IMG/VR virus record: IMGVR_UViG_2721755676_000003
Coordinates: 1 to 51,015 of that record
DNA length: 51,015 nucleotides
Strand: one strand, 5' to 3'
Source of the DNA: a virus
Lineage: Duplodnaviria > Heunggongvirae > Uroviricota > Caudoviricetes
Shown: positions 6,191 through 50,194 of the stretch, in pieces
Numbering within the stretch: the stretch's first letter is position 1
Layout of the letters: every line of letters begins with the position of its first letter
Position numbers and translations under genes: made by a program
Notes under the pieces: model-generated
The model's input: the letters and a program-made list of their open reading frames with translations, nothing else
What the model was told of the DNA's origin: nothing
The model's database searches: none

Positions 6191-6302
6191 GACTGGTTTT
6201 TGTGACGTGCCTGCCGAATCGCAGGCAAAAAAAATCCCGACACAAAGGTCGAGATCGAAAAGTTTGGAGCGGCGGCTTGGAGGTGGAACAGATGTATGAG
6301 TT

Positions 6303-6328
6303 ATTAAAAACCCGGCACGGAGGCCGGG
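6303..6328 (-). terminator. Rho-independent terminator ending the repressor-downstream cargo operon
   Basis: Minus-strand reading: stem CCCGGC, loop CUCCGU, stem GCCGGG, then UUUUUAAUAA, beginning 5 nt after the stop of the 310-aa ORF. Confidence 0.55.
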
Positions 6329-6332
6329 TCGG

Positions 6333-7265
6333 TTAGTTAAGACTTTTAATCATATAGTTACGTCTAGAGATCTTTAATCTGTCATTATGAATTTCTGTAA
6401 CGCTAGCAACCATTGATACGTGTGAGCCTACTTTAAATCTTGACTGTATTTCACTAAGCATATCAATAGGATATGATGCCTTTATCTTTCCGTCAGCGTT
6501 CACCACTTCGAGTTTGCCATACATAGAGAGCAGTGATAGCTCACCTGTGATAATTTCATTCCACGGTTTGGATATTTCCGTGAAAGCTAACCTTTTTGTG
6601 AGCCTATCAATAGCTTCTTTGTTTAAGGAAACCGAACGCCTACCTTCACTTAACGGTCCGATCCAAGATAATTCTAGTGCTAAGCCATTTCGCTCGCACT
6701 CTTCTACAATGTTTTTAAGGTTATGCGTTGAATTCGACCCAATTTCAGCAAGTTTAGAAATAAATGAATCTTCGTCAGTGGCCTCTAGTACTGAGAAAAT
6801 TTCTTTTACAGCATGGCTAGAAACCGTATCAACCAGTTCACATGCCCCTGTGGAGAACGTTACGGCTAGCTTTGTTGAACCAGGCCTCAAATCAGCCAGT
6901 CTCATATCTAGAGACTGCTTTATCCCTACAGGTACCTTGCGTGAGTCTTTTCCTGATGAAATCCGATGTACGGCTTTTTGAACTAGGCCAGCAAGGTTTC
7001 CAGAAATGACAGAAAGTAATTCCAGAGGCATAGTTCCTGCGTCAACAAGAAAACCTTTGAACCTTAACTCCATGAAATCTTGGAGCGGGTGCTCTATCTC
7101 AGCAGATCTCAGTTCAGCCCTCAAATCGCTTAAATGGGAATCTAAGCTGCGCGCTAAAATTCTGTCGGCAAGAGTCATTTCATGAGCAGGGCCGATTTTG
7201 TTCATACGATCCTGAATGAACGCAATCCTTTGTTTTAATGGTATAAATTTTGGCTCTGTGCTCAT
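6333..7265 (-). CDS. Uncharacterised 310-aa protein, second gene of NTase-led operon
   Basis: 310-aa ORF; start ATG overlaps upstream gene stop (ATGA coupling); no motif I can assign; soluble. Confidence 0.6.
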   Translation of the reverse strand: MSTEPKFIPLKQRIAFIQDRMNKIGPAHEMTLADRILARSLDSHLSDLRAELRSAEIEHPLQDFMELRFKGFLVDAGTMPLELLSVISGNLAGLVQKAVHRISSGKDSRKVPVGIKQSLDMRLADLRPGSTKLAVTFSTGACELVDTVSSHAVKEIFSVLEATDEDSFISKLAEIGSNSTHNLKNIVEECERNGLALELSWIGPLSEGRRSVSLNKEAIDRLTKRLAFTEISKPWNEIITGELSLLSMYGKLEVVNADGKIKASYPIDMLSEIQSRFKVGSHVSMVASVTEIHNDRLKISRRNYMIKSLN

Positions 7266-7735
7266 ACTACAACCCTCGCTAAACCTTTTGGCGTTTCCTC
7301 TCTATCGTATCCAAAGCACCCTCGCCAATACATCCTGTCGTTTGTATAATCAGACTTTGGATCCCCTTTGAAAAGAGGTAAAAGGTCAATATGATAATTT
7401 AACTTTATAAAATCCCTATCCAAGAGACTTTCAACCTGAGGGGCAAACATTATAGGAATGGCATTTATAGCATCAAAATCCATAACAACTAGTATATCGA
7501 CATCATCGGGATCTAGTTTTTCAGTTGTAAATGAGCCGTCTACCCAAATTTCCAGAAAGCAATTAAATTGCTTATTAAGAACGCGCAAGTTGGTAATTAA
7601 CTGTATGAAATTACAGTATAGCATGGATCTACGAGTTGACTTAGGAAAACTATCAACACATATTTTTTTCAACTGGTTGTCATCAATATCATGAAAACCT
7701 GGTGTGAAGAGTGGCGGATAGCATTTCTTAGACAT
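7262..7735 (-). CDS. Small nucleotidyltransferase-fold protein (Pol-beta/minimal NTase signature)
   Basis: 157-aa ORF containing hG[GS]-x9-DxD-hhhh signature (IWVDGSFTTEKLDPDDVDILVVMDFD) typical of minimal nucleotidyltransferases. Confidence 0.5.
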   Translation of the reverse strand: MSKKCYPPLFTPGFHDIDDNQLKKICVDSFPKSTRRSMLYCNFIQLITNLRVLNKQFNCFLEIWVDGSFTTEKLDPDDVDILVVMDFDAINAIPIMFAPQVESLLDRDFIKLNYHIDLLPLFKGDPKSDYTNDRMYWRGCFGYDREETPKGLARVVV

Positions 7736-7860
7736 AAGAAGCGTAATCCCTTACATGTTTTAATTGAGTATGTACCAACGATTTCGGCGATACAGCCGCT
7801 CTATCTAAATCTTTTGATAACTACAAATGTTCTATGCCGCAAAAAGCCTTAAACGAAGCA

Positions 7861-10875: not shown

Positions 10876-11712
10876 CTAATGATGATAAATACCATCGTCT
10901 AAAGGGGGACCTTCAGCAGTAACCCCCGTGATTCTACTTGGCGGTTCAAAGATGGCCTCACCAAATATCGCATCAAACTCTGCTTTGGTGACTGATAAGT
11001 ATTGCAAGATGAGCTCTAGCAGCTCTCTGTACGTATCACAATGCCATTCAATGTGAGGACATATTTGGGAGAGAACTCTGGTCTTAAAATCATCCAGATT
11101 TTTTGGGACTTCCAGCAAGTTACCAGTGTTTAATGCTTTCGACATAAACTTGTAATTGAGCATGGAGAGAACCATTACTGATACACCTTTCTCTTGCCTT
11201 AACTGATCGAACTTCTCTTGTGCTTGAAGGCTTAGCTTGGCGTATTCGCGATCTCGTTTTGAGTTGACTGGTTCGACGTACTGAAGCGGTTCGTCTGCAG
11301 CATCACCGATACGTGGACAAAAGTATCTATTCCACCAAGCCTCAAAATACCTTTTTTGGAACTCTAGGTATGTCATCCCAATAATATTGGTGTTTTGAGT
11401 GTACTGTTTAGCACCCTGCTGAAGCCCGTGCTTTGAAATAATAAATCCAATGTTAGCCCCGGTTTCATGCATTACCGTGGTGAACGAATGGACCACCGTC
11501 TGAGGTATAGAACTACCCCAGTTTTTGCATTCCACAATGTATCTGATTTTGTCCACGCTCCTAACATCTGTAGCTAGAACATCCACATTCACCGAGCCAC
11601 GCGGTGTTTCTAAATCGACCTCGACTTCTGCAAACAAGCCAACATTACGGAATATACGTTGGACCCCTGTCTGGAGGTCTTGCCAGTTTTCTGGTAATGG
11701 GTCATCGATCAC
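10876..11712 (-). CDS. Mrr-like restriction-endonuclease-fold protein (PD-(D/E)xK) with unknown C-terminal domain
   Basis: N-terminal VDVLATDVRSVDKIRYIVECKNW (D...ExK) typical of Mrr_cat nucleases; opposite strand to the replication genes. Confidence 0.5.
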   Translation of the reverse strand: MIDDPLPENWQDLQTGVQRIFRNVGLFAEVEVDLETPRGSVNVDVLATDVRSVDKIRYIVECKNWGSSIPQTVVHSFTTVMHETGANIGFIISKHGLQQGAKQYTQNTNIIGMTYLEFQKRYFEAWWNRYFCPRIGDAADEPLQYVEPVNSKRDREYAKLSLQAQEKFDQLRQEKGVSVMVLSMLNYKFMSKALNTGNLLEVPKNLDDFKTRVLSQICPHIEWHCDTYRELLELILQYLSVTKAEFDAIFGEAIFEPPSRITGVTAEGPPLDDGIYHH

Positions 11713-12046
11713 TTTTACTTTTCCTATGCACTATCCGCATGCTTTTAAGACTACTTGAAGACACAAACGTCGTCATCCACTAAAAGGTTCAAATTTGAGA
11801 TGATAGTTCGTTTCTGGTATGAAACGAACCGTTTGAAGAGCCGAGTGCTCTGCTAAGAGCCAGGAGTGGACGTTCTCAAAGCATTGCTTACATCGAGGAT
11901 GTATTAATCAACGGGGTGCAGGTCAATTGATCCATAAAAGGTTGAATGCTCTATACTAAGCACTAGTAAAAAACATTGCACAACATACACTTAAGGTTTA
12001 AATTGCTTATCACCAAAACATAAATTTAATCATAGGCTGATGGCGT

Positions 12047-13510
12047 ATGCTAAAGGTAATTAAAAAAGGTATTGGCTTCAATAAAACAGAAAAAAGATTG
12101 ATTGAATTAGCTAATAATGCCTTTATAGGTTTGTGGTCATATCCTAATGTTTATAGTGATGAGGGTTTTGCAAAAAATAAATCGGGTAAAGAAGTGTGTG
12201 ATTTATTAGTGGTTTTTGAAAATAATGTAATTTTGTTTTCTGATAAAGACATTAAGTTTAATGATGAAATTGATATCCATATTGCATGGAAAAGATGGTT
12301 TAGGAGAGCAGTAATCGAATCAGCGACTCAACTGCATGGAGCTGAAAAATTTCTAAAAGAGCAAAGTGACAGATTATTTCTTGATAAAGAGTGTAAGGAG
12401 AGGTTTCCAATAACAATTGACAATAAGATGCGCTTTTTTTTGATCGCAGTAACTAGCAATAGCGCAATTCCAGCTTTCAATTACTTTGGTCGTATCGCGG
12501 AAGGAAGTTCTGGAACTTTAGTAAATTGCTTTCCCTTTGGAATAAAGGAAAGTATGGAGCAACCTTTTACTGTTGGAGATTTGTATCCTGATAAGACATT
12601 TATCCATGTTTTAGATGAACTATCGTTAAAATTACTATTCTCTGAGCTGGATACAATTACTGACTTCGTTGACTATTTAAAAGAGAAAGAACGAGTCGTG
12701 AGGACAGGTTTTCTTGGATTAAGTCCTGGTGAGGATGACACACTGGGTGCCTACTTGATCGGGCATGGATTAATAGTAGATGAAAAGAAGGTGCCAAAAA
12801 ACTCGTTTGTTCGAATTGCAGAGCATGAATGGACTGAACTAAAAAAATCGCAATTATATGAATATTATACAGCTCTAAAAAAAGGTAGCTATTTTTGGGA
12901 TGAAACAGTACAACGTTTTTCCGATTCCATATTAAATGCAACTGTTGGTCTAGGTAAGGAAAATGACTTTCTTAGTCATGAGGAAACATTAAGACAATTA
13001 GCCTCTGAAAGCAGAGAATCAAGATATTATTTATCTAAATCATTCTTGGATAAATTCAAGCAAGTTCCTTCTGACAGAAGAAGCTCCAGAATCGTAGAGT
13101 CTTTAGATGAAAAAGGAAAGTTTTATATTTTTTTGTTTTTTCCGCGTGAAAAACATTTATCATATGAGGAATATAGAAACGAACGTTTTTCTTGCATTCA
13201 AATGTATGCGTTAACAGCTAAATATAAATACCCACAAATAAAAAAACTCATAGTCATTGCTACTGAAAGTAAAGACTCCGAAGGTCGTTCAGAGGATGTG
13301 GTATTTTGTCGATTTGATAACCCCCTTTCAAAAGGCGAACGTCTGTTTGTACAATCAGTGATGCACGAATATAGCATACTTACTGATTTCATTCCAAAAC
13401 CGAACAATAAATTAAATTTGTCACCGATAGTTAAAAGTGACAAGAAACCTGGAAGGAATGAACCTTGTTTTTGTGGATCTGGTATAAAATATAAAAAATG
13501 CCATGGATAG
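12047..13510 (+). CDS. SEC-C motif protein of unknown function (AT-rich cargo)
   Basis: 487-aa ORF ending in CFCGSGIKYKKCHG (SEC-C metal-binding motif); strongly AT-rich relative to phage backbone. Confidence 0.6.
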   Translation: MLKVIKKGIGFNKTEKRLIELANNAFIGLWSYPNVYSDEGFAKNKSGKEVCDLLVVFENNVILFSDKDIKFNDEIDIHIAWKRWFRRAVIESATQLHGAEKFLKEQSDRLFLDKECKERFPITIDNKMRFFLIAVTSNSAIPAFNYFGRIAEGSSGTLVNCFPFGIKESMEQPFTVGDLYPDKTFIHVLDELSLKLLFSELDTITDFVDYLKEKERVVRTGFLGLSPGEDDTLGAYLIGHGLIVDEKKVPKNSFVRIAEHEWTELKKSQLYEYYTALKKGSYFWDETVQRFSDSILNATVGLGKENDFLSHEETLRQLASESRESRYYLSKSFLDKFKQVPSDRRSSRIVESLDEKGKFYIFLFFPREKHLSYEEYRNERFSCIQMYALTAKYKYPQIKKLIVIATESKDSEGRSEDVVFCRFDNPLSKGERLFVQSVMHEYSILTDFIPKPNNKLNLSPIVKSDKKPGRNEPCFCGSGIKYKKCHG

Positions 13511-13955
13511 AAAATTAGCATAATTCTATTAACTCATTGCCATTATCTTGACAAAACTAAATGGAAACTTGTCATATTTATTTCTTGAAAATATTTAATT
13601 ACTGGCTGTAGCAACTTTAACTTAGTGCGGGCATAGCTATGAATCTCCGATTGTACTGGCAGGGGGCTACAACTTTAGATGACTCACTCCCATCTTCAAC
13701 AAGCTAGCTGGCTGCCTTGTGTTGCGAGGATTCGTAATGATGATGTCAGTTTTGTCCGCTTCTGGCAAGAGGCGGACGAGATGGCTAGGCTTAAGACCTG
13801 CTGAAAGCCAGGAGCTGACATCACTACAACTTTTAATGCTAACTTCACTTAAAATAATTTTGGAATTTGCACATATGGGTTATATAAGTAAATCATCGCA
13901 ATGAGTTCTATGCGATAATTTTATATTTAGTCCCCATCTTTATCGGATGGTTCAT

Positions 13956-14729
13956 CTAAGCTTTAACTCGCCTGACAAGAGTTTTACTGCAACCTATACT
14001 GAGAAGGTGGCGTCGAAGATTTTTATCAATATGACTATCCAACGTGGTAATTAAAAACACTATATCCTCAATAACCTTAACAACATCCGAGCTTGATATT
14101 TTAGTGAGGCTTACCTTTGGTCTGTCACAATTATGGATACAATCATGTCTCCTCTGAATTAGCGAAGTATATCTGTTAGTTAGCTTTTCTAACATAGATT
14201 TCCGTTTTTTTTCTTTATCCTCTTTGGATAACTTTTTGTAAGCTGTTGGAGTGGTTCCCATAAGACGATGCTTCGCTGACTTATTTATCAACCAGTCCTC
14301 CATCATCGGCTTTGTTAATATTTTGTTTTTTTCATCCATGATATGATTGAACAAATCCTTAATTTTATCGATTGAAAGTACGTTATCTTTTTCAATCAAG
14401 TCACGTGCTGCATTTCGCCATTTCCAATTCGAAGTTGTATTCTGAGCATTCACGATAGAATTTATAGGTAACTTCAATGACCTTATCTTTGGGCTTAATT
14501 TGACATTGCTGTCAATGCTTTTTGCAATTAGGATTTTTGATAACACATCTGCAAATGCATCACAAAAATATGCATCAAGTGCTCCAATCGCAATCATCCA
14601 AGAGGCTCTATATATATCATCCTTTAGAGTCGATATAGGTAATGAATCAGCATGAGCTATAAGGTCTTTTGCTCTATTAATATCCTGATTAAAATGACTT
14701 AACGCTGTGCTTGGCATATAACACCTCAA
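13956..14729 (-). CDS. HEPN-like protein (candidate abortive-infection RNase)
   Basis: 257-aa ORF with C-terminal R-x4-H motif (LIQRRHDCIHNCDRPK) in a helical, lysine-rich protein; AT-rich. Confidence 0.4.
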   Translation of the reverse strand: MRCYMPSTALSHFNQDINRAKDLIAHADSLPISTLKDDIYRASWMIAIGALDAYFCDAFADVLSKILIAKSIDSNVKLSPKIRSLKLPINSIVNAQNTTSNWKWRNAARDLIEKDNVLSIDKIKDLFNHIMDEKNKILTKPMMEDWLINKSAKHRLMGTTPTAYKKLSKEDKEKKRKSMLEKLTNRYTSLIQRRHDCIHNCDRPKVSLTKISSSDVVKVIEDIVFLITTLDSHIDKNLRRHLLSIGCSKTLVRRVKA

Positions 14730-15040
14730 AATAAATGATTTATATGGTTAATTGGAAATGCAAAACTTAAATTTTAGTTTATACCGTTTGTTGCCAGAAT
14801 ACGATATATTCACAGATTCTAGACCATTAACATTGGCACTACAGCCAGATAATGAGTTTGAACGTACACCGTAGTATACTTTCTGATCTGCCCACCCCAA
14901 AAAAATTAGTACTATCTGGATTACCACAGTCCGCTCTTGTCACCCAAATGTTATTTTACCTTAATGACATTAGATTTCATTTGGATCAGATTGCCGCAAC
15001 TATCAGTGTGCGGCAAGTAGCTGAAGCATTCATAGAGTAT

Positions 15041-16285
15041 TTATGGGTCAAGGAGGGATTTAAACTGAGATATGGGATAGTCATATCGTTCGTTATAGAA
15101 TGCCGCAAGCTTGCAGTATTCTGCTAGGTGAGCATCTGGCCTGTATGGGACAATCGCTCCTTCAATCGATAGCTCAATACTATTAGTGACAATCAACATC
15201 AAGGCATGATCTTTAGTAAATAGTTGTTCTGAAAGTAAACGATATTTATTTTTAGGCTCGGAAATAGTTTTGAATGATTCGAACGTGTCATTAATAAACT
15301 GAAGTGCCAATGCTCCAGGTCGTTTTCCTGTCAGTTGTTTTTTTAACGCCCGCTTAGATACTTTCTCAACCTCTTTCCAAATTTGTACATCACCTGCGGA
15401 TACGACCCGAATTCCCTTTAATCGATGCTCAGAGTCATGGCAGGCCACTAACGCTGCTGTGGAGCCATGGAGTGTTTGTGCTGCATTGAAGACTACATTC
15501 TCATCAGTTTTATCTCCCAATAATGGGCAAAATTCTTCAACAACAGAAAACTTTTCGCTGTGTATATCGTTGCCTTGAGTTTCAATCTCGTCTACTAGGC
15601 GAGCCATAAATTCTTTGAAGCTTTTATCGTTCTTAGGCACAGGTTCCGTCAAAATGATGGTCAAGATACTTGCGAATCCTTCCTTTGCAGTGAGAAGTCT
15701 GTCGAGCGAGATTTTTTCCAGCAAAGCACCAATCAAGCGATGCCCATCTGCAAGACTAACAGCAAAACCTTTATCACCTGCGAAGGATTTGCACTCAAGC
15801 TCAAATGGAGGAAGCCCTTGAGGTGGGTAGACTAGAAGGTCAAAGGTCTCCTCGCCTTTACTTTCCTCTGGCCATTCAATGGAGCACCCCCTGGAGATTA
15901 GTGTTTTGGCCATATATAACTCGTACTGCAAAGCGCGCATGTCGCTGGCAAGCTTGAACGCACCCTCGAAACGTTTTTTGAGTTCCCTGGGGCCTGGTTC
16001 ACCTCTTTCCACTGCTTCACACAGTTCCACCACTCGCTGCACAAATAACATTGTCTGGAACATTGTATTCCATTCGTATCCCGCATTTAATGCATACTGA
16101 TTTCTATCCCAAAACGTCAAACCGAATGCTACTGAGTTTTCTAATTCTTCCTGTCCACCACGTCCAGCAAATTGATTTGAAAGTAACTTTATGTCCTGAA
16201 CGACCTTCAGCCAAGGCTTTAAAGGGAAAAGCTTGACTAAACGGTTATAAATATCAGGGAAGCTAAGCATAATGAGGGGCATCAA
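15041..16285 (-). CDS. Hypothetical 414-aa protein with PD-(D/E)xK-like motif
   Basis: ETFDLLVYPPQGLPPFELECKSF (D...E-x-K) suggests a nuclease fold; otherwise unrecognised. Confidence 0.45.
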   Translation of the reverse strand: MMPLIMLSFPDIYNRLVKLFPLKPWLKVVQDIKLLSNQFAGRGGQEELENSVAFGLTFWDRNQYALNAGYEWNTMFQTMLFVQRVVELCEAVERGEPGPRELKKRFEGAFKLASDMRALQYELYMAKTLISRGCSIEWPEESKGEETFDLLVYPPQGLPPFELECKSFAGDKGFAVSLADGHRLIGALLEKISLDRLLTAKEGFASILTIILTEPVPKNDKSFKEFMARLVDEIETQGNDIHSEKFSVVEEFCPLLGDKTDENVVFNAAQTLHGSTAALVACHDSEHRLKGIRVVSAGDVQIWKEVEKVSKRALKKQLTGKRPGALALQFINDTFESFKTISEPKNKYRLLSEQLFTKDHALMLIVTNSIELSIEGAIVPYRPDAHLAEYCKLAAFYNERYDYPISQFKSLLDP

Positions 16286-32409: not shown

Positions 32410-32720
32410 TAGCGGTTGCCTCTGCGTTCTATACGCCTGAACCCACAGCGGCAGACCTGGCGCCTTACGGGCTTACGCCTGATGACTATGACGATAAGTT
32501 CGTAGATGTCTGGCCCGATATCTGGCCTTTATTCCTGGTGTTTCAGGCTGTTAGTACGCAGTGGCGCACAGGCATTGGAGGTGCATCAGGGCTTGATTAC
32601 AACGTGCTGCCTTGGGTAATGCGCCTGCACCACGTCGAGGATGAGGCAACCGCGCTTTTGGACATCCGAATCATGGAGAGCGCCGCACTAAAAGTTATGC
32701 ATAAAGAGAGGGCGGAATGA
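32098..32720 (+). CDS. Tail assembly chaperone G-T fusion via programmed -1 frameshift (slip at about 32400-32406)
   Basis: Heptamer A AAA AAC at 32400-32406; the -1 frame stays open to 32720 (...KKLIAVASAFYTPEP...MHKERAE), ending where the tape-measure ATG starts. Confidence 0.6.
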
Positions 32721-35629
32721 GTAACGATATCGCCACGATTTCCCTGCGAGTAAATACCAGTGAGCTGGAGCGTGGTAACCAGGCACTGGATCGCTTTCAG
32801 GAGACCGCGTCCGCTGCGGCAGGTAAAGCGGATGATTTGAACAGTACGTTCCGCACCGGTATCGATAACCAAAAGAAAAACAGAGAAAGTCTCAAGCAAC
32901 AGCGCCAGGAGCTGCAGAACCTGCTGAATAAAATTAGCCCGGTAAACAAGGCGCTGGATGAACTGGACACTATCCAGGAGAGCCTGGCGAAGTTTCGCGG
33001 CAAAGGGCTGGTAGGGGATGAAGACTTTACTCGCTACAACAGCGTGCTTGAGACGACCCGAGTTAAACTGGCGCAGGTCATGGAGTCTGAGACTGCAGAG
33101 GGGCGGGCTCGCATTGAACAGGCACAGGCAGCGCAACGTGCAGCTGCAGCGGGCAAAACCTTTATCGATTCGCTGGAAGAGCAGGTCACAGCAATCGGAA
33201 AAACGCGCGTAGAATTGTTAGAGCTAAAAGCAGCCCAACTTGGCGTGTCCGATCGTGCTGCACCGATGATCGCCCGACTGAAAGAGCAGGAGGACGCGTG
33301 GAAGTCAGGAGCGATCAGCGCGGGGCAATACCGCAACGCGATGCGTTATCTACCAATGCAAATGACCGACATCGTAACTTCATTGGCGTCCGGTATGCCG
33401 GTTTATATGGTAGCCATTCAGCAGGGCGGCCAGCTGCGCGATTCGTTTGGCGGTGTAGGCAATGCTCTGAAAGCGATGTTGTCGATGGTGACTCCTGCCC
33501 GAGTGGCCATTGGTGGCCTGGCCGGTGCTGTTCTGATTGCTGCAAAAGCGGGGGCGGACTACTTTACCGCCTACGACGAAATCAACAAGGCCATTATCAG
33601 GACTGGCAACATTGCCAGCACGTCAGCGCTCCAGATTATGGCTTCCTCCCAGTCTATTGCTGCCTCTACTGGCGCGACTGTAGGAACCGTTCAGAGTTTG
33701 ATGATTGAGCTGGTTGGCATGGGATCGCTGACACAGCAGCAACTTGAAAAAGCAGCGGGCTCCACGGCGCTGGCGGTTCAGACCGGTATAGTCTCGGCGC
33801 AGGACATCACCAAAGCCTATAAGGACATCGAAAAAGACCCAGTTAAAGCGCTGCAAAGTCTCAACGAACAATATAATTTCCTGACCGTTTCACAACTTAA
33901 GCATGTTGACGATCTGATAAAGCAAAAGGACCAGACCGCGGCCGTTACGCAGGCTATGGACCTGTTTGGCGACACAATGGCTGAGCGCGGAGAGCAGGCT
34001 TATGACTCGCTGACACCGTTTGGTCGCCTGTGGCTGGATATCAAAGACTGGGCATCTGAGGCCATGCAGAATATCGGTCAGTGGGTAGCAGAGCTGGCAT
34101 CAAACACACTGAAGGAATTCAACGCAATTTATTACAGCGTAGCGATCGTTTTCCAGAAGCTGAACCAGATCATTTCTTCCTCTATCGCGGCTGCGATTAA
34201 TCTCATTCCTGACTGGGCGAAAACGGATACTTTGCAGGCATGGCAGGACTATAACGAACAAATGGCCGGCGCTTATGGCGACAGCGTCTCTCAGCTGAAA
34301 AAAGACTGGGATGCCGCTGATATCAGTGCAGGTAAATACCTTGATACGGCCAGAAAGATAAGTACCGCAACCACCCAGAAGGATCGTGAAGGGGTCGCTT
34401 CTTTCGGTAAAAAGACTAAAACCGGAAAGCAGGGTACTTTATCGGCTGGCGATCGCAGCACGGATGCTGCCCAGGCCGAGTTGCTGGCGCTTCAGGCTCA
34501 GTTACGCGCGCTGCAGCAGCATAAAGGGCTGAACGACACTATCAGCCAGCAGCGCAAAGATCTGTGGATGACTGAAGCGAAATTTCAGGTGTTGGAGGAG
34601 GCCTCGCGTTCACGTTCACTGACAAAGCAGGAGCAATCCCTGCTGGCGAGTAAAGACCAGGTGCTGCAGTTAGCGCGGCAGAAAGCCCTGTTGGGTGATC
34701 AGATTTCCGCGCAGGAACTGCTGAACAAACGTATGGATACCTCGCAGAAATACGTCACGCAGATGGCTGAGAAACAGGCCGCATTACTGGGTGGCGCAGG
34801 GATGAGTGACCGCCAGGCGCAGCGAGAGCTGGCAAAAAGTCAGCTCGCCGCTGGCTGGAAAAATACGGGTGGTTCGCTGGATGAAGATGGATATCAGAAA
34901 CAGCTTAAGGCAGCTAACGATTACTATGATGCTGAGGATAAGCTACGCGGTGACTGGCTGACCGGCGCGAAAAAGGGCTGGGCTGATTTCGAAGACAGCG
35001 CGACCAATGTGTATTCCCAGGTGCAGACGGTTACCAGCAACGCATTCACCGACATGGCCAGCACCCTGACTGATTTCTTCACAACAGGTAAATCTAACTT
35101 CTCAGATTTCCTTTCCACTTTCCTCAAGGGTATCGCCCAGATGCTGACCCAACTGGCTCTGGTTAATGGAATGAAATCAGCGTTTGGTGGAACCGGTATC
35201 GGCGCGTTCTTTGGTTTTTCAGGTGGTGGTTTGGTCCCTGGTTTTGATGGAGGCGGCTACACGGGAGATGGGGGTAAGCACCAACCCAAAGGAGTGGTAC
35301 ACGGCGGTGAGTTTGTGTTTACGAAGGAAGCGACCCGCGCACTGGGTGTCGGTAATCTGTATGCGCTTATGCGTGGAGCTCAAGGGTATGCAAACGGCGG
35401 TTATGTTGGCCGCGCCCCGATGTATGGGCTGCAATCTTCGACAACTGATGGCGTAACCGTTCAAACGTCCGTGATCGTTCATAACCAGAACACTCAGCAG
35501 CAGGCATATGGTGACAATGACGCTATTTCTCGGGCTTACAAGCAGACCATTGATCAGTCAGTACGCGCAGGTATAGCCAAACAGCTCCAGCCTGGAGGTC
35601 TCATCTGGAATGCAACGAAATCAAGATAA
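32717..35629 (+). CDS. Tail tape measure protein (lambda H-like)
   Basis: 970-aa helical ORF with internal hydrophobic segments, downstream of G/G-T. Confidence 0.85.
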   Translation: MSNDIATISLRVNTSELERGNQALDRFQETASAAAGKADDLNSTFRTGIDNQKKNRESLKQQRQELQNLLNKISPVNKALDELDTIQESLAKFRGKGLVGDEDFTRYNSVLETTRVKLAQVMESETAEGRARIEQAQAAQRAAAAGKTFIDSLEEQVTAIGKTRVELLELKAAQLGVSDRAAPMIARLKEQEDAWKSGAISAGQYRNAMRYLPMQMTDIVTSLASGMPVYMVAIQQGGQLRDSFGGVGNALKAMLSMVTPARVAIGGLAGAVLIAAKAGADYFTAYDEINKAIIRTGNIASTSALQIMASSQSIAASTGATVGTVQSLMIELVGMGSLTQQQLEKAAGSTALAVQTGIVSAQDITKAYKDIEKDPVKALQSLNEQYNFLTVSQLKHVDDLIKQKDQTAAVTQAMDLFGDTMAERGEQAYDSLTPFGRLWLDIKDWASEAMQNIGQWVAELASNTLKEFNAIYYSVAIVFQKLNQIISSSIAAAINLIPDWAKTDTLQAWQDYNEQMAGAYGDSVSQLKKDWDAADISAGKYLDTARKISTATTQKDREGVASFGKKTKTGKQGTLSAGDRSTDAAQAELLALQAQLRALQQHKGLNDTISQQRKDLWMTEAKFQVLEEASRSRSLTKQEQSLLASKDQVLQLARQKALLGDQISAQELLNKRMDTSQKYVTQMAEKQAALLGGAGMSDRQAQRELAKSQLAAGWKNTGGSLDEDGYQKQLKAANDYYDAEDKLRGDWLTGAKKGWADFEDSATNVYSQVQTVTSNAFTDMASTLTDFFTTGKSNFSDFLSTFLKGIAQMLTQLALVNGMKSAFGGTGIGAFFGFSGGGLVPGFDGGGYTGDGGKHQPKGVVHGGEFVFTKEATRALGVGNLYALMRGAQGYANGGYVGRAPMYGLQSSTTDGVTVQTSVIVHNQNTQQQAYGDNDAISRAYKQTIDQSVRAGIAKQLQPGGLIWNATKSR

Positions 35630-35704: not shown

Positions 35705-36508
35705 ATGAAAAAAATTGTAGGTGTGTTATTTCTTTCCTTCTTATTAGCTGGGTGCGATAAACCTAAAATTGACTCATCAACTGATGAAGCAATGAAATCA
35801 TCTATAGCCAAGGTCAGAGAATCACTTCCGGAAAATAAACGGGAGGAATTTGATAGCGCTTTAAAGGTCGTAGCGTTCAGTAACATTAATATGGCTGACC
35901 TAATGCGAGCATCGTCAGAAAGTGACAAAGAAGATCTAAGCAAGAAGATGCGCGAGCCCCTGTCAGGCAAAACTGGAGAGGAAATCATCTCTTATGCTCA
36001 GCAAGTAACTGCCGAGAGGGAACTTAAGCAGAAAGAGCAGGCAATTCAGGAAATCAAAGAGCTTGAACAGAAAAAAGCTGACTCTGAGAAGGCTAAAGAA
36101 GAACTCAAAAAAGTACAGGTTCTATCATCTCGATTTAGCCTGGAACCTGAAGAGTATGGGAAGCCACAACCTATTATTCGCCTTGTTGTGAAAAACAATA
36201 CTGATAAAGCTATTTCCCGTGTGTACTTCAATGGAGTGATAGCCAGCGATGGACGTTCAGTTCCATGGCTGGAAAAAGATTTTAACTACGAAATTGCTGG
36301 CGGGCTTGAACCGGGTGAAGAAGCTACTTGGGCATTGGCTCCGAATAAGTTTTCTGAATGGGGTCAGGTTGATGCTCCAGCTGATGCGGTCTTCACAGTT
36401 ACAGTAACGAGAGTCAATGGGGCAAATAAAGAAGCGATGTTTGATGCTTCCGGCTTTACAGAGCAAGAAAACAGCAGGCTTGAAGATTTAAAGAAAAGAT
36501 ACCTTTGA
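35705..36508 (+). CDS. Lipoprotein of unknown function (moron inserted between tape-measure and M genes)
   Basis: Signal peptide plus lipobox (MKKIVGVLFLSFLLAGC); Lys/Glu-rich coiled region; AT-rich; own terminator. Confidence 0.6.
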   Translation: MKKIVGVLFLSFLLAGCDKPKIDSSTDEAMKSSIAKVRESLPENKREEFDSALKVVAFSNINMADLMRASSESDKEDLSKKMREPLSGKTGEEIISYAQQVTAERELKQKEQAIQEIKELEQKKADSEKAKEELKKVQVLSSRFSLEPEEYGKPQPIIRLVVKNNTDKAISRVYFNGVIASDGRSVPWLEKDFNYEIAGGLEPGEEATWALAPNKFSEWGQVDAPADAVFTVTVTRVNGANKEAMFDASGFTEQENSRLEDLKKRYL

Positions 36509-36526
36509 GCTGACGTATCTACTTAA

Positions 36527-36547
36527 CCCGCTTCGGCGGGTTTTTTT
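36527..36547 (+). terminator. Rho-independent terminator after lipoprotein moron
   Basis: CCCGC-ttcg-GCGGG followed by TTTTTTT. Confidence 0.65.
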
Positions 36548-36562
36548 ATGCCCGGGGGAAAC

Positions 36563-36910
36563 ATGGCGATCGAAATATTTACCTGGCGAACCCAGATTCA
36601 GGCGGGAATGGAAGGGGAGCTTACTTACGCAACACGCTCTGCATCCTTCGGAGACGGATTTGAACAGATCGCCGGTGAAGGCATCAACCCTGAAAAACAG
36701 TCATGGCCGATGACCTTAACAGGGAAAAAAGCTGAGATGCTCGATGCGCTGAGGTTTTGCCGCAAGCACATTACAAAATCCTTTATTTGGACGTCTCCTG
36801 TCGGCGAAACCGGTTTATACCGGATTGAAGCTGATTCCATTAAAGTCCAGCCGCTATCCAGCAAAGTGATGACCATAAAAGCAACCTTCAAACAGGCATA
36901 CGCACCATGA
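36563..36910 (+). CDS. Minor tail protein M (lambda gpM-like)
   Basis: FTWRTQIQAGMEGELTYATRSASFGDGFEQIA resembles recalled lambda M (FRWKVKPGMDVASVPSVRKVRFGDGYSQRA). Confidence 0.8.
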   Translation: MAIEIFTWRTQIQAGMEGELTYATRSASFGDGFEQIAGEGINPEKQSWPMTLTGKKAEMLDALRFCRKHITKSFIWTSPVGETGLYRIEADSIKVQPLSSKVMTIKATFKQAYAP

Positions 36911-37663: not shown

Positions 37664-38401
37664 ATGCGTCAGAAAACGATTCAGGCGATCCTGGCGCATG
37701 CAGCGAAAGAATATCCCCGCGAATGCTGTGGTGTGATAGCGCAGAAAAGCCGGGTGGAACGCTATTTCCCATGCCGTAACCTGGCTGCTGAACCAACGGA
37801 ACAGTTTCACCTTTCGCCAGAGGACTACGCTGCTGCTGAAGACTGGGGGACGATAACGGGAATCGTACATAGCCACCCCGACGCGACGACCCAACCAAGC
37901 GAACTGGACAAGGCTCAATGCGATGCAACGTTGCTTCCCTGGTATATTGTCAGTTGGCCGGAAGGAGACTTTTGTACCATTACCCCCCGCGGCGAATTGC
38001 CGCTAATCGGGCGCCCGTTTGTGCTCGGACACTATGACTGTTGGGGGCTGGTGATGAGCTATTTCCGGCAGGAGCACGGGATCGAGCTTAAGGATTACCG
38101 GGTGGATTATCCTTGGTGGGAGAATGACTACCCGGACAACTTCTATCAGGATTGCTGGTACGAGTGTGGTTTCCGTGAATTCGACGGACCGCCGAAACCA
38201 GGCGATATGGTGATTATGCAGGTTCAGGCCGACAAGTGGAATCACGCCGGAATACTGCTGGAAGGCAATATGTTGCTGCACCACCTGTATGGTCACCTAA
38301 GCCAGCGAGTGCCTTATGGTGGATACTGGATGGATAGAACAATAAAGATTTTGCGGTTTAAAAAATTTGCTATCCGACCACATCCGTATGTAAAAAATTA
38401 A
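37664..38401 (+). CDS. Tail assembly protein K (JAB/MPN metalloprotease plus NlpC/P60-like domain)
   Basis: ECCGVI...GIVHSHPD (JAMM-like H-x-H-x-D context) and C-terminal Cys/His region; position after L. Confidence 0.8.
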   Translation: MRQKTIQAILAHAAKEYPRECCGVIAQKSRVERYFPCRNLAAEPTEQFHLSPEDYAAAEDWGTITGIVHSHPDATTQPSELDKAQCDATLLPWYIVSWPEGDFCTITPRGELPLIGRPFVLGHYDCWGLVMSYFRQEHGIELKDYRVDYPWWENDYPDNFYQDCWYECGFREFDGPPKPGDMVIMQVQADKWNHAGILLEGNMLLHHLYGHLSQRVPYGGYWMDRTIKILRFKKFAIRPHPYVKN

Positions 38402-38449
38402 TGTGGGGTTGTATCATATAGCACCTGATTTTTTTTGTAAGGTTATTCT

Positions 38450-39127
38450 GTGAGGCGAGTACCAAATACTAGTTCTAACTATATAAATAGTGATGAATAC
38501 AATGATTTATTTCATGATCATATGGACAAGGCTTTAGAGCGAGCTCTTGATACTAGAAAGTTTGAAATTGATCTATATTGGCGTCGCGCCACCTATTTTT
38601 GGACGTTCATAGGTGCTACATTCGGTGGGTTCTTTGTCGCATACGCTTCAACCTCACCTAAAAGGCAAGACTTATTAGTTATTCTTTGTTGTTTGGGGGT
38701 GGCTTTCTCGTTTGCATGGTTTTGTGTTAATAAAGGCAGTAAATACTGGCAAGAGAACTGGGAGAAGCACGTCGATCTTCTTGAAAATAAGTCGATTGGT
38801 CCATTGTATAAAATTGTCCTAACAAGAAATGAAGATATGACACTCCGGCAAAAAGCTTTTGATGTAATAACGGGTCCTGCAGCTTTATCAGTCTCGAAAA
38901 TTAATCAATTGATTAGCCTGTTTGTGTTAATGCTTTGGGTTGTGTTGCTTGTGAATTCCTTACTTCCGTTGGATTTCAACCTTCCATTTAAATGGTTTTA
39001 TATCATTCTTGTATTTACAACTATTCTTTTTTGCGGATTGGTAATGCTGCTAGGACGTACATATCATGGAGGGCATTATCATTTGGCAACGCTGAGGCAA
39101 TCTCGAATAAAACCTGAATCGGAATAG
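38450..39127 (+). CDS. Multi-pass membrane protein of unknown function (moron between K and I; candidate abortive-infection or exclusion effector)
   Basis: AT-rich ORF with several predicted TM helices (YFWTFIGATFGGFFVAYAS; LLVILCCLGVAFSFAWFCV; LISLFVLMLWVVLLV; FYIILVFTTILFCGLVMLL); start uncertain (GTG 38450 or ATG 38522); own terminator. Confidence 0.5.
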   Translation: MRRVPNTSSNYINSDEYNDLFHDHMDKALERALDTRKFEIDLYWRRATYFWTFIGATFGGFFVAYASTSPKRQDLLVILCCLGVAFSFAWFCVNKGSKYWQENWEKHVDLLENKSIGPLYKIVLTRNEDMTLRQKAFDVITGPAALSVSKINQLISLFVLMLWVVLLVNSLLPLDFNLPFKWFYIILVFTTILFCGLVMLLGRTYHGGHYHLATLRQSRIKPESE

Positions 39128-39136
39128 TTAACTACA

Positions 39137-39156
39137 CCCGCTTAGGCGGGTTTTTT
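39137..39156 (+). terminator. Rho-independent terminator after membrane-protein moron
   Basis: CCCGC-ttag-GCGGG followed by TTTTTT; near-identical to the hairpin at 36527. Confidence 0.65.
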
Positions 39157-39168
39157 GGTGGTGACATT

Positions 39169-39768: not shown

Positions 39769-39783
39769 ATACTTTCTCCATTA

Positions 39784-39807
39784 AGCCACCTCAGGGTGGC
39801 TTTTTTT
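39784..39807 (+). terminator. Hairpin plus T-run between I and J (terminator/attenuator-like)
   Basis: AGCCACC-tcag-GGTGGCT followed by TTTTTTT. Confidence 0.45.
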
Positions 39808-46792: not shown

Positions 46793-46929
46793 ATCTGCTC
46801 ACATAGAGTTTAGGCAATAAAATTTACAAAACTCGTAATCCGAAGCGACATAGAAACTTATAAACGAAACGGCGAAGCTTTAAACAATCAGGATAGGTCC
46901 TCTGTCTTGCATGCATACCCAAATGAAAC

Positions 46930-46949
46930 TACTGTATATAAAGACAGTA
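46930..46949. promoter_or_regulatory. LexA (SOS) box upstream of umuD
   Basis: TACTGTATATAAAGACAGTA (CTGT-N8-ACAG) about 15 nt upstream of the umuD ATG. Confidence 0.7.
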
Positions 46950-46964
46950 CAAAAGGTGTGCACT

Positions 46965-47384
46965 ATGGAATTTATCAGGCCTGCGGAACTGCGTGAAATT
47001 CTCGCTCTCCCGCTTTTCAGTGACTTAGTTCAGTGTGGTTTCCCAAGTCCAGCAGCTGATTACGTTGAACAACGTATCGATCTCAATGAGTTACTTGTCG
47101 CTCACCCGAGCTCAACGTATTTCGTCAAAGCCGCGGGCGATTCTATGATCGAAGCCGGGATCAGCGACGGTGATCTGCTGGTAGTGGACAGTTCCAGGAC
47201 TGCTGAGCATGGTGACATTGTCATCGCTGCGGTGGAAGGGGAGTTCACTGTTAAACGCCTGCAGCTGCGCCCGACCGTGCAACTCAATCCTATGAACAGC
47301 GCCTACAGTCCGATTGTTGTTGGCAGTGAAGACACACTGGACGTGTTTGGCGTTGTTACTTTCATCGTTAAATCTGCGAGCTGA
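46965..47384 (+). CDS. umuD: UmuD (Pol V accessory subunit, LexA-like S24 self-cleaving peptidase)
   Basis: [72 protein letters not shown]... near-identical to recalled E. coli UmuD; includes the Cys-Gly cleavage site and Ser/Lys dyad. Confidence 0.9.
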
Positions 47385-47386
47385 AC

Positions 47387-48655
47387 ATGTTTGCGCTCTG
47401 TGATGTGAATTCGTTTTACGCATCATGCGAGACGGTGTTTCGGCCCGATTTGAGAGGGCGGCCAGTAGTTGTTCTCTCGAATAATGACGGCTGCGTAATC
47501 GCGCGCAGCGCCGAGGCCAAAGCCGCCGGAATTACCATGGGAGAGCCTTTCTTTAAGCAAAAGGATCTATTCCGGCGCGCTGGTGTTGTTTGCTTCAGCA
47601 GTAACTACGAGCTGTACGCAGACATGTCGAACCGGGTAATGACGACGCTTGAGGAAATGAGCCCCCGCGTCGAAATTTACAGTATCGATGAAGCTTTTTG
47701 CGACCTGACTGGCGTTCGCAACTGCCGGGACCTGACTGACTTCGGCAAAGAAATTCGTTCTACGGTTCTAAAGCGTACGCACCTGACGGTTGGGGTTGGA
47801 ATTGCGCAGACAAAAACGCTCGCTAAGCTGGCCAATCACGCCGCGAAGAAGTGGCAGAGGCAGACGGGTGGAGTTGTTGATTTGTCCAATATCGATCGCC
47901 AGCGTCGGTTATTGGCAATTGTGCCTGTGGAGGATGTCTGGGGCGTCGGCAGGCGCATCAGTAAGAAGCTAAACGCCATGGGCATCAAAACGGCTCTGGA
48001 TCTCTCAGAACAAAGCACATGGATTATCCGTAAACATTTTAACGTGGTACTCGAGCGAACGGTCCGGGAGTTGCGCGGAGAGCCTTGTCTTGAGCTGGAG
48101 GAGTTTGCGCCGGCAAAGCAGGAAATCGTCTGCAGCCGATCGTTCGGCGAGCGCGTCACGGACTATGAGCAGATGCGTCAGGCTATCTGCAGCTATGCGG
48201 CGCGTGGCGCCGAAAAGCTTCGCGGCGAGCATCAGTATTGCCGTTTTATCTCGGCGTTCGTTAAGACGTCACCTTTTGCCCTGAATGAGCCATATTACGG
48301 TAATAGTGCGTCCATGAAGCTTCTTACTCCCACTCAGGATTCCCGCGACATCATCAACGCCGCGGTAAAGTGCCTGAACAAAATCTGGAAGGACGGCCAC
48401 CGCTATCAAAAAGCAGGAATCATGCTTGGGGATTTTTTCAGCCATGGTGTGGCTCAGCTCAACTTGTTCGATGAGAACGCGCCGCGCGAAGACAGCGCGC
48501 AACTGATGCAGATCCTTGACCAGCTCAATGCCAAAGGAGGAAAGGGCACACTCTACTTTGCAGGGCAGGGAATTCAGCAACAATGGCAGATGAAGCGAGA
48601 AATGCTTTCTCCGCGGTATACGACCCGCTTCCAGGATTTATTAATTGTTAAATAA
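47387..48655 (+). CDS. umuC: UmuC (Y-family translesion DNA polymerase V catalytic subunit)
   Basis: [41 protein letters not shown]... canonical UmuC N-terminus; 422 aa. Confidence 0.92.
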
Positions 48656-48723
48656 ATGCAGGACATTATGGTCAAAATAAAGTATCTTATTCAGGCACTT
48701 ATAAATACTTAAATGGAATTGAT

Positions 48724-49131
48724 ATGTTAAAACCTATTCTCGCATTAGCAGTTCTTACCTTATCTGGGTGTGCAATTATCCAAGAGCCTCCAAAACATGG
48801 CACTCCTGACGCTGTATATACGACTAAGAGCGATGCAAAAAGCGTTGCATTATGCATTGCTGATGTCTTTGCAGATTACGACCCTTACATCAAAGCTCGC
48901 TATAAAGAAGAATTCTGGGGTTATAAAATTAATTATTCCGCCGGGCAATATGGCGAAGCTGAAATTTACAAGAAAAATAACGTTACCACTGTGAATTATT
49001 TTGGTCAGAATAATTCAGACAAGAAAATGGTAAAGCATCTTAAAGACGGCATCCAAAAATGTGTAAATAAGGTGTACGACATGTCTCCAGTGGGTGGTAA
49101 GCAGCCAGATGGAAGCGTAAAACTCTGGTAA
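48724..49131 (+). CDS. Lipoprotein of unknown function
   Basis: Signal peptide plus lipobox (LAVLTLSGC); AT-rich. Confidence 0.55.
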   Translation: MLKPILALAVLTLSGCAIIQEPPKHGTPDAVYTTKSDAKSVALCIADVFADYDPYIKARYKEEFWGYKINYSAGQYGEAEIYKKNNVTTVNYFGQNNSDKKMVKHLKDGIQKCVNKVYDMSPVGGKQPDGSVKLW

Positions 49132-49145
49132 TATCTGTCAGGATA

Positions 49146-49817
49146 TCACTGAATATTATCAATCAATTCAGCACCCTGATTTTTTGGATTATCAACGGCA
49201 CGCGACACTGCGTGCCAGATAAACTTGTCGGCGTCCACTGTGCCGTCGGCCGCTATCTCTTCAGCTTCTTTCCCGCCTATATCCTGCCGCATCCATTCGC
49301 GAGCTGCTTCCGGCGACAGAACCAGTGGCCGGCGGTCGTGAATTTCGACCAGTCCTTTGTCAGCTGCAGACGTCACTATCAGAAAACCTTCTGCTTCATC
49401 GCCGCGCTCAAACGGTGTGCTGCCGATCGCCGCCATGAAAATCGGCTGTCCGTCGGCGCGGTGAATGAAGTAGGGCTGCTTCTTGTCACCTTCCTTCTTC
49501 CATTCGAACCATCCATCCGCAAAGCAGATCGCCCGGCCATGCTGCCAGAGGGGCTTAAACATTCGACTGGTGGCCGCAGTCTCGACACGCGCGTTAATCA
49601 GTGGTGGTTTATCCCACCACCCGGGCGCGTAACCCCAGAAAACCGGATCAAGATGCAGTTGCTCGTCGCGTTCGCTCAGCAACAGAACTTTGGTACCGGG
49701 CGCGACGTTGTACCGGCCAATCGGCTCAGGGTCATATGCTATGTCGCGATCGGCTTCATCGGCCAGGTAAGCAAGATATTCTTCACGGGTTTGGGCTTGT
49801 GCAAAACGTCCACACAT
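49146..49817 (-). CDS. SOS-response-associated peptidase (SRAP, YedK/HMCES family)
   Basis: Begins MCGRF (catalytic Cys2), 223 aa; family hallmarks recalled. Confidence 0.8.
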   Translation of the reverse strand: MCGRFAQAQTREEYLAYLADEADRDIAYDPEPIGRYNVAPGTKVLLLSERDEQLHLDPVFWGYAPGWWDKPPLINARVETAATSRMFKPLWQHGRAICFADGWFEWKKEGDKKQPYFIHRADGQPIFMAAIGSTPFERGDEAEGFLIVTSAADKGLVEIHDRRPLVLSPEAAREWMRQDIGGKEAEEIAADGTVDADKFIWHAVSRAVDNPKNQGAELIDNIQ

Positions 49818-50194
49818 AGAAACCTCCAGTCAGTAAGACTGAAAGTATAGGGCAGGGAGAAAAAACAGGTGCGCACCGAAACATCATGATTTTGAAACAG
49901 GGGCATGATGATGGAAGTCAGAGTGCCGGTAAAGCGGGTCGTTGAGAAACTGGAAAGAGCTACGCAAAGTTAAAGTGTTAGGCTATTTACGTTCCGAAGC
50001 GGTTATCGTTTATTAATTGAGCGAAATACGAATATTTAGAGGGAGTGATGGGGCATTTTTGAGAGATAACCTTCCCCAAAACGATACGCAACCTACTGAA
50101 TAGCATAAGGTTCTAGTAAGGGTGAAAATGGTGCAAATCAACGCCTCGATTATAGGTTAACTTATTGTATATAAAGAATAAAAACGGTAGTTGA

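Follow-up and report, generated by a model that had tools for sequence, protein, structure and literature searches.

What does an extra, AT-rich gene do between two tail genes that overlap in phage lambda itself? The question is raised by a lambdoid prophage in the chromosome of Escherichia coli strain 210205630 (NZ_CP015912.1; swine cecum), analyzed here as a stretch of 51,015 nucleotides, IMG/VR record IMGVR_UViG_2721755676_000003 (the window). Positions 38402–39168 of the window are exactly the nucleotides that follow the stop codon of a K-type tail gene and precede the start of the neighbouring I-type gene. The gap holds a single open reading frame (ORF), at 38450–39127 on the plus strand, of 678 nt including the stop codon, which encodes 225 aa from a GTG start. 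Our analysis supports its classification as a moron, i.e., a horizontally acquired one-gene cassette in the K–I junction of the late tail operon, and places its product in 8xMP ('RipA family octameric membrane protein'), a family with a name but without a characterised function. The cassette and the family assignment, taken together, appear almost certain. The locus is composed of the following features:

37664–38401, plus strand: tail-tip assembly gene K, with JAB and NlpC/P60 peptidase domains (PF14464, E = 2e-21; PF00877, E = 2.5e-20; phrog_30, E = 9e-133).

38409–38449, plus strand: upstream block with a -10-like TATCAT (38412–38417), a T-run and the ribosome-binding AAGG (38441–38444); candidate promoter and 5′ untranslated region.

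38450–39127, plus strand: coding sequence (CDS) of a predicted inner-membrane protein with four transmembrane (TM) helices, 8xMP/'RipA family octameric membrane protein' (PF24838, RefSeq name).

39136–39156, plus strand: intrinsic-terminator-like hairpin and T-run (terminator scan, folding, compensatory change in the related IMG/VR contig L090).

39169–39768, plus strand: tail assembly gene I (phrog_32, E = 4.5e-77; PF06805, Lambda_tail_I, E = 8.5e-5).

A preliminary description of this DNA had reported an AT-rich ORF inserted between K and I, genes said to be adjacent in lambda-type tails, encoding about four TM helices after a short N-terminal domain and followed by a CCCGC/GCGGG hairpin with a T-run. 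As a description of the sequence it is correct in every particular. The GC content of the gene is 0.381, compared with 0.512 and 0.506 in the two flanking 1.5-kb segments. Measured against all 678-nt windows of the whole stretch, the deviation is modest (z = -1.9, a GC content matched by 7% of windows), since further AT-rich cargo regions exist in the prophage; the contrast is therefore one with the tail operon and not with the window as a whole. The GTG start is preceded by AAGG at a distance of 7 nt, and RefSeq annotates the identical CDS (WP_065304093.1). A dN/dS of 0.075, obtained against a 96–98% identical copy in contig L090, indicates that the ORF is a real gene; in comparisons with copies of 76–55% identity the synonymous sites are saturated and pN is only 0.15–0.29.

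Morons are recognized by additional DNA separating genes that adjoin each other in relatives, by deviating GC content, by a promoter and a terminator of their own and by expression from the repressed prophage (PMC3594210). Of these features, the K–I insert displays the first two directly (GC of 0.381 against 0.51) and the terminator at the level of sequence. Comparison with related phages lacking the insert, which had been suggested as a check, revealed no 8xMP ORF in lambda, HK022, PHB10, Fraca or the mEp phages despite their related K and I genes, the DNA of which is ~80–88% identical. Exactly the same junction is occupied by unrelated proteins in three of these phages: in HK022 by gp20, of 74 aa and annotated as 'moron gene product'; in PHB10 by a 203-aa ORF unrelated to 8xMP (BLASTP E = 76), an insert that likewise ends with a hairpin and T-run; and in Fraca by two other ORFs. 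The view of the gene as inserted cargo and not part of the tail is upheld by the relatives without it, its deviant GC, its own terminator and the unrelated ORFs in the slot. A structural tail component was ruled out, as the gene is absent from related tail modules and the family is found mostly outside phages. All enterobacterial copies show the same composition, with an 8xMP gene of 35–38% GC inside DNA of ~51% (the contrast was measured in contigs L090, L005 and L006). A search for flanking repeats of transposon type found only short chance repeats around the cassette.

The same slot is used repeatedly. The K–I junction also holds 8xMP in three further lambdoid proviruses (L090, L005 and L149), and in Mangrovibacter the gene lies in the L–K slot. 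In seven P2-like proviruses (L101–L106 and L139) its neighbours are gpS (tail completion) and gpV (baseplate spike), with 8xMP on the opposite strand; this position and orientation correspond to the slot of the nonessential Orf30 in phage P2 (NC_001895, 9439–10224), although Orf30 itself is not similar (no tblastn match). One further 8xMP gene was found in a myovirus tail region, and another lies directly 3′ of an S24-type repressor in a Comamonas prophage, which also carries DarTG. In the 76–77% identical cassettes of L005 and L149, an ORF of 136/137 aa without a Pfam match follows 8xMP (L005 8760–9170; L149 7806–8260). The hairpin of L149 is found only past this extra ORF, which would make it a two-gene cassette, and in L005 a hairpin was called on the opposite strand.

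At its 3′ end, the cassette clearly appears to have a terminator of its own. The terminator scan found the hairpin ACCCGC-TTAG-GCGGGT at 39136–39151, 9 nt past the stop codon and followed by TTTTT; the 6-bp stem includes five G–C pairs and the loop is TTAG. The 41-nt stretch with the hairpin folds at -14.6 kcal/mol (z = -2.8 against shuffled sequences), and the hairpin is retained in the 96%-identical L090 with one compensatory change, from A–T to G–C. The ribosome-binding site of gene I, GGTGG (39157–39161), lies directly 3′ of the terminator T-run. At the 5′ end, a block of the form TGTAt[c/t]ATAT...CTGAT...T-run...TAAGG-N7-GTGAG is kept in four cassettes despite saturation of the synonymous sites in their coding sequences. 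At the aligned upstream position L149 has TTTAAA-N16-TATTAT, the only one of the four relatives with consensus spacing. The upstream block is also promoter-like on the minus strand (38413–38441), where CTTACA-N17-TATGAT would point antisense into gene K; L090 has a corresponding minus-strand site at 4483–4511, CTTACA-N17-TATAAT (10/12). These minus-strand sites may have arisen by chance in AT-rich DNA. Rfam identified no RNA family in the window.

The family assignment is based on PF24838 (8xMP, octameric membrane protein), which the protein matches with E = 1.5e-41 and 141.8 bits against a cut-off of 30; residues 28–171 align on positions 3–135 of the 136 in the model. All 107 relatives scanned match PF24838 as well, and such proteins are named 'RipA family octameric membrane protein' in RefSeq and UniRef. 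A search of a 90%-clustered database returned 2,621 homologues (E ≤ 0.001), and 2,766 clusters at 50% identity were found. Its members occur in at least 423 species genomes of Pseudomonadota, Acidobacteriota, Planctomycetota, Bacteroidota, Nitrospirota, Verrucomicrobiota and Desulfobacterota, and 50 IMG/VR contigs carry 8xMP genes. Identity to the E. coli protein is 40–62% in these species genomes and still 45–62% in other phyla, which suggests lateral spread combined with strong constraint. Within E. coli the gene is rare, being present in 1 of 5,426 complete genomes even at distant-blastn sensitivity; among 72,556 plasmids it was detected on six, Bacillus plasmids among them.

Reference collections contributed little beyond this name. 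PHROGs gave no match to the 8xMP protein at E ≤ 0.1, a tblastn search of 50,697 deposited phage records found no match with either the 8xMP protein or its P2-type homologue, BFVD contained no fold match, and an NCBIfam scan returned nothing relevant. The Protein Data Bank, searched by sequence, with two profiles and by fold, held no related chain. A literature search found no paper using the term octameric membrane protein, and the label could not be traced to any structure.

The predicted architecture of the protein is that of a polytopic inner-membrane protein with both termini inside and conserved cytoplasmic domains. Hydropathy analysis revealed four hydrophobic segments (residues ~47–66, 75–94, 151–172 and 181–203) after a hydrophilic N-terminal stretch of ~45 residues. 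An AlphaFold2 monomer model (pLDDT 73, pTM 0.64) comprises helices at 14–66, 72–107, 148–171 and 182–201 and short strands at 110–126 and 210–217, which are poorly defined in the monomer. Since the predicted periplasmic loops have only ~8 residues each and the TM2–TM3 cytoplasmic loop is long and rich in Lys/Arg, both termini are predicted to be cytoplasmic. This orientation agrees with the natural fusion P0214 (566 aa), in which TPR_10/TPR_12 repeats follow TM4 at the C-terminus, a layout that would fit an effector-plus-sensor arrangement. Several other members, among them P0196, P0227, P0139 and P0141, have N- or C-terminal extensions of 130–400 residues without a Pfam match; some of these extended proteins may be gene-calling artefacts.

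In alignments of first 37 and then 107 relatives, the invariant residues fall in clusters on the face predicted to be cytoplasmic; R36, E39, Y43/W44, R46, W104/E105 and S147 are among them. The conserved motifs are RKFEIxLYWxRAxYFW before TM1, GSKxWQENWExHVDxLE-GPLxK after TM2, TGPxxxSVSKxNQ before TM3 and GGxxHxxxxRxSR in the C-terminal tail. The second periplasmic loop (173–180) and TM4 are variable.

To characterize the genomic context of the family, 133 loci were compared. The commonest neighbour cluster was present in nine of them, so that no neighbour is conserved and the 8xMP protein most likely works without a dedicated partner. A conserved partner gene was accordingly dropped as a candidate, the ThiC, DRT2 and 234-aa neighbours being lineage-specific. 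What recurs is the type of surroundings. In Burkholderia pseudomallei, 8xMP is flanked by a full-length PDC-S06 candidate and Septu PtuA, and DRT8 is found upstream; in another gammaproteobacterium it belongs to an island next to smpB that also contains a CD-NTase and Cap15. It adjoins two ThsB-type TIR genes in Marinobacter, and GmrSD with a Schlafen-like gene, surrounded by transposases, in Microbulbifer. On a Raoultella F-type plasmid it is found beside pifC, a P-loop NTPase and a RelA/SpoT protein (pifC/PifA-like region). Three related IMG/VR proviruses carry an 8xMP homologue of 23–28% identity directly 3′ of a full-length DRT2 (PADLOC E ~1e-205; L130 2470–4819, L133 6394–8759, L137 6410–8747). 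The 149 immediate neighbours in the species genomes include AbiTii, Old, AriA, restriction-modification enzymes, reverse transcriptases, AAA_21 ATPases and integrases; housekeeping genes are also among them. The neighbourhoods thus appear to be variable, defence-rich regions and offer a qualitative guilt-by-association argument.

On this basis we consider the case for an anti-phage role of the 8xMP protein to be evenly balanced. As the best overall explanation, we tentatively hypothesize, with somewhat less than balanced confidence, that the moron encodes a stand-alone 8xMP inner-membrane protein that would protect the lysogen by infection-triggered permeabilisation. The gene would be transcribed in the lysogen from a weak promoter of its own and transcription stopped at its own terminator, whereas Q-antiterminated late transcription would read through the cassette during lytic growth. 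AT-rich immunity loci can be silenced by H-NS (bioRxiv 10.64898/2026.09.05.749240). The protein may form a homo-oligomeric ring, with eight subunits if the family label applies, whose invariant cytoplasmic face would consist of the N-terminal helix, the post-TM2 helix, the β-hairpin and the C-terminal GGxxHxxxxRxSR tail. This face could sense an infection-associated cue, upon which the triggered assembly would perturb or permeabilise the inner membrane and abort the superinfecting phage, with no need for a dedicated partner. The triggered-permeabiliser mechanism specifically is rather doubtful.

Several observations weigh against this proposal. On the plus strand 5′ of the ORF there is no match to the sigma-70 consensus, the best candidate being TTGCTA-N19-TATCAT, and consensus promoter matches near the 8xMP gene are no commoner than in shuffled sequence; a promoter belonging to the cassette is plausible but unproven. 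The TM helices show no obvious amphipathic or pore-lining character, the structure model covers the monomer alone, and the octamer is a family label. A scan of PADLOC-DB v2, which includes Kiwa KwaA, AbiZ and the PDC candidates, returned no families at E ≤ 1, and a PADLOC scan of distant 8xMP members gave no matches. The defence-island association is qualitative and comes from ~15 inspected contexts. A literature search turned up only the Francisella RipA papers and none linking the 8xMP/RipA family to anti-phage defence, and the only studied namesake, Francisella RipA, has been linked to LpxA and envelope integrity and not to phage (PMC4322802, PMC4688374). The suggestion of a defence or pore-forming effector, put forward in the preliminary description, is plausible from the defence-island and cargo-slot context.

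The namesake provides a competing explanation, namely that 8xMP is a RipA-like envelope homeostasis factor conferring lysogenic conversion. Its oligomer would bind or modulate a cytoplasmic enzyme of envelope biosynthesis such as LpxA and tune lipid A or the envelope, with an effect on the fitness, stress tolerance or surface properties of the lysogen and not on phage sensing. Francisella RipA (FTT_0181c/FTL_1914), of ~18 kDa (PMC2767360), resides in the cytoplasmic membrane as a homo-oligomer and has two cytoplasmic domains, both essential (PMC4322802); its loss-of-function suppressors map to lpxA and glmU (PMC4322802, PMC4688374). The topology predicted here likewise has two conserved cytoplasmic domains, RefSeq and UniRef both apply the 'RipA family' label, and most of the listed hosts belong to diderm phyla. 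The suggested homology to Francisella RipA rests on the RefSeq/UniRef name and on the agreement between these descriptions. The E. coli protein differs in its 225 aa, its fourth TM helix and its conserved C-terminal tail. Moreover, RipA is encoded by a core gene of Francisella with ties to LpxA and intracellular growth, whereas 8xMP is here a rare accessory gene, found in mobile slots and defence islands and not as a core gene beside envelope genes. Members on Bacillus plasmids, in hosts without lipopolysaccharide, together with this accessory and mobile character weaken an envelope or LpxA role, and we regard it as unlikely.

Superinfection exclusion at genome entry, in the manner of HK97 gp15 and P22 SieA, would have the protein block the tape-measure or ejection conduit without killing the cell. 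The design of the locus agrees with that of the founding moron: HK97 gene 15, inserted in the tail operon, encodes an inner-membrane superinfection-exclusion protein that excludes HK97-like phages (PMC3594210), and P22 SieA is also an inner-membrane exclusion protein (PMC10883804). Both 8xMP and HK97 gp15 are small inner-membrane proteins encoded by inserts of deviant GC in a lambdoid tail operon, and the tail-module placement of 8xMP recurs. Gene 15, however, occupies a different slot, flanked by the tail chaperone and tape measure genes, and its product has no sequence similarity to 8xMP. No similar sequence was found in the 50,697 phage records, which presumably include HK97 and P22; with PHROGs and PADLOC equally silent, the proposal that 8xMP belongs to a superinfection-exclusion family was not borne out. 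Such proteins tend to be phage-specific and fast-evolving. The 8xMP family, unlike HK97 gp15, extends across very distant phyla and into non-phage loci at 40–60% identity, which would be unusual for such proteins, and its conserved surface is cytoplasmic. We favour infection-triggered permeabilisation over an entry block for three reasons: what is invariant across phyla is the cytoplasmic face, whereas the periplasmic loops are very short and the second one varies; the family crosses phyla independently of phage type; and the TPR-fused variants look like effector-plus-sensor proteins. The gp15 precedent makes entry exclusion a rival to be taken seriously, but it is, in our judgement, decidedly unlikely. 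An accessory role in the phage's own lytic cycle (lysis timing, holin/antiholin-like action, membrane remodelling or help in tail assembly), with expression by late-operon read-through only, would account for a small multi-TM protein encoded in the late operon on the strand of the tail genes, with no consensus promoter in the window upstream of it. Against this stand the mid-operon terminator, which suits an independent unit better, the absence of 8xMP from close tail-module relatives, its orientation opposite to the late-gene strand in the P2-like proviruses, the location of most family members in non-phage chromosomal loci and the lack of a match to any PHROG lysis family; we consider such a role highly improbable.

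The preliminary description had also raised a relation to SLATT/DUF4231 proteins, in which case 8xMP would be a two-TM effector requiring a nucleotide or cDNA signal from a partner enzyme encoded elsewhere. The layouts are indeed alike, each with a TM hairpin closed by a short loop and flanked by cytoplasmic helices, and both types are predicted to act on the membrane and occur in defence loci. One homologue is named 'DUF4231 domain-containing' in UniRef, and some distant members adjoin reverse transcriptases, SLATT proteins being effectors of reverse transcriptase systems such as DRT10 with its SLATT-5 effector (bioRxiv 10.64898/2026.04.29.721553). Yet SLATT proteins have two TM helices and 8xMP has four, and 8xMP lacks a partner that generates nucleotides or cDNA. 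The SLATT_1–6/DUF4231 models matched neither the protein in the window (E ≤ 1) nor 106 further members (E ≤ 0.1) nor ten more (E ≤ 10), the homologue named DUF4231 included, and linkage to SMODS, SLOG or reverse transcriptase partners was not conserved in the 133 loci. The adjacent reverse transcriptase is DRT2, limited to the three related proviruses. To our knowledge, DRT2 works without a membrane partner. SLATT/DUF4231 membership is thus not sustained, and we give an effector of this type hardly any credence. Another known protein of comparable design is lambda RexB, a four-TM inner-membrane protein expressed from the prophage that depolarises the membrane when activated by RexA; rexAB follows cI in lambda. 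Both are prophage-encoded polytopic inner-membrane proteins, and the Comamonas homologue lies right behind a prophage repressor. In contrast to RexB, 8xMP has no RexA-like partner, and it has no PADLOC match.

Extending the permeabilisation hypothesis from this moron to the whole family, one might view 8xMP as a widespread, unrecognised single-gene anti-phage family, in which a ring combines cytoplasmic sensing and membrane permeabilisation in ~225 aa. Francisella RipA would then be a domesticated member, with envelope phenotypes produced by the same membrane activity. This extension we judge improbable as it stands, though worth stating. If the defence reading is true, 8xMP would represent a highly compact membrane immunity module of a single gene, which the 2023 PADLOC catalogue lacks, and would provide a functional frame for the unexplained phenotypes of Francisella RipA; if it has neither a phage nor an envelope phenotype, it is one more uncharacterised moron. 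No publication was found that ties the 8xMP family to prophage cargo slots and defence islands. As this link is unpublished as far as we could find, the gene is a worthwhile and cheap experimental candidate.

The 8xMP cassette is not the only cargo of this prophage, which holds at least four or five AT-rich cargo regions, the 8xMP locus being a clean, testable example. The junctions of the lambdoid tail operon (here H–M and K–I) act as cargo slots. A second tail-operon moron, at 35705–36542 with GC of ~0.41, lies between the tape measure gene H (32717–35629) and gene M (36548–36910) and encodes a 267-aa DUF6694 lipoprotein (PF20404, E = 1e-27; phrog_7468, E = 5e-112). It ends with the hairpin AACCCGC-TTCG-GCGGGTT and a T-run (36525–36542), built much like the terminator behind 8xMP. 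The early region contains an AT-rich island (GC ~0.32) between replication gene P and nin/Q, at ~10876–16285 (RefSeq 499388–504797), where RefSeq annotates a restriction endonuclease, a SEC-C metal-binding domain protein, a HEPN domain protein, a 414-aa hypothetical protein and a DinI-like protein; this island looks like a prophage defence cluster. At ~6300–7750 (RefSeq 507938–509340), a low-GC pair encoding DUF6932 and a 310-aa hypothetical protein is located beside repressor-type HTH genes, a slot typical of lysogen-expressed cargo. The right prophage end (~46900–49850) encodes a UmuD-like peptidase, a Y-family DNA polymerase and an SOS-response-associated peptidase, with the chromosomal ydeJ region beyond. 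Between genes I and J, at 39783–39802 and within the late operon, a further terminator-like hairpin, AAGCCACC-TCAG-GGTGGCTT, is followed by a T-run and stands with no cargo gene attached.

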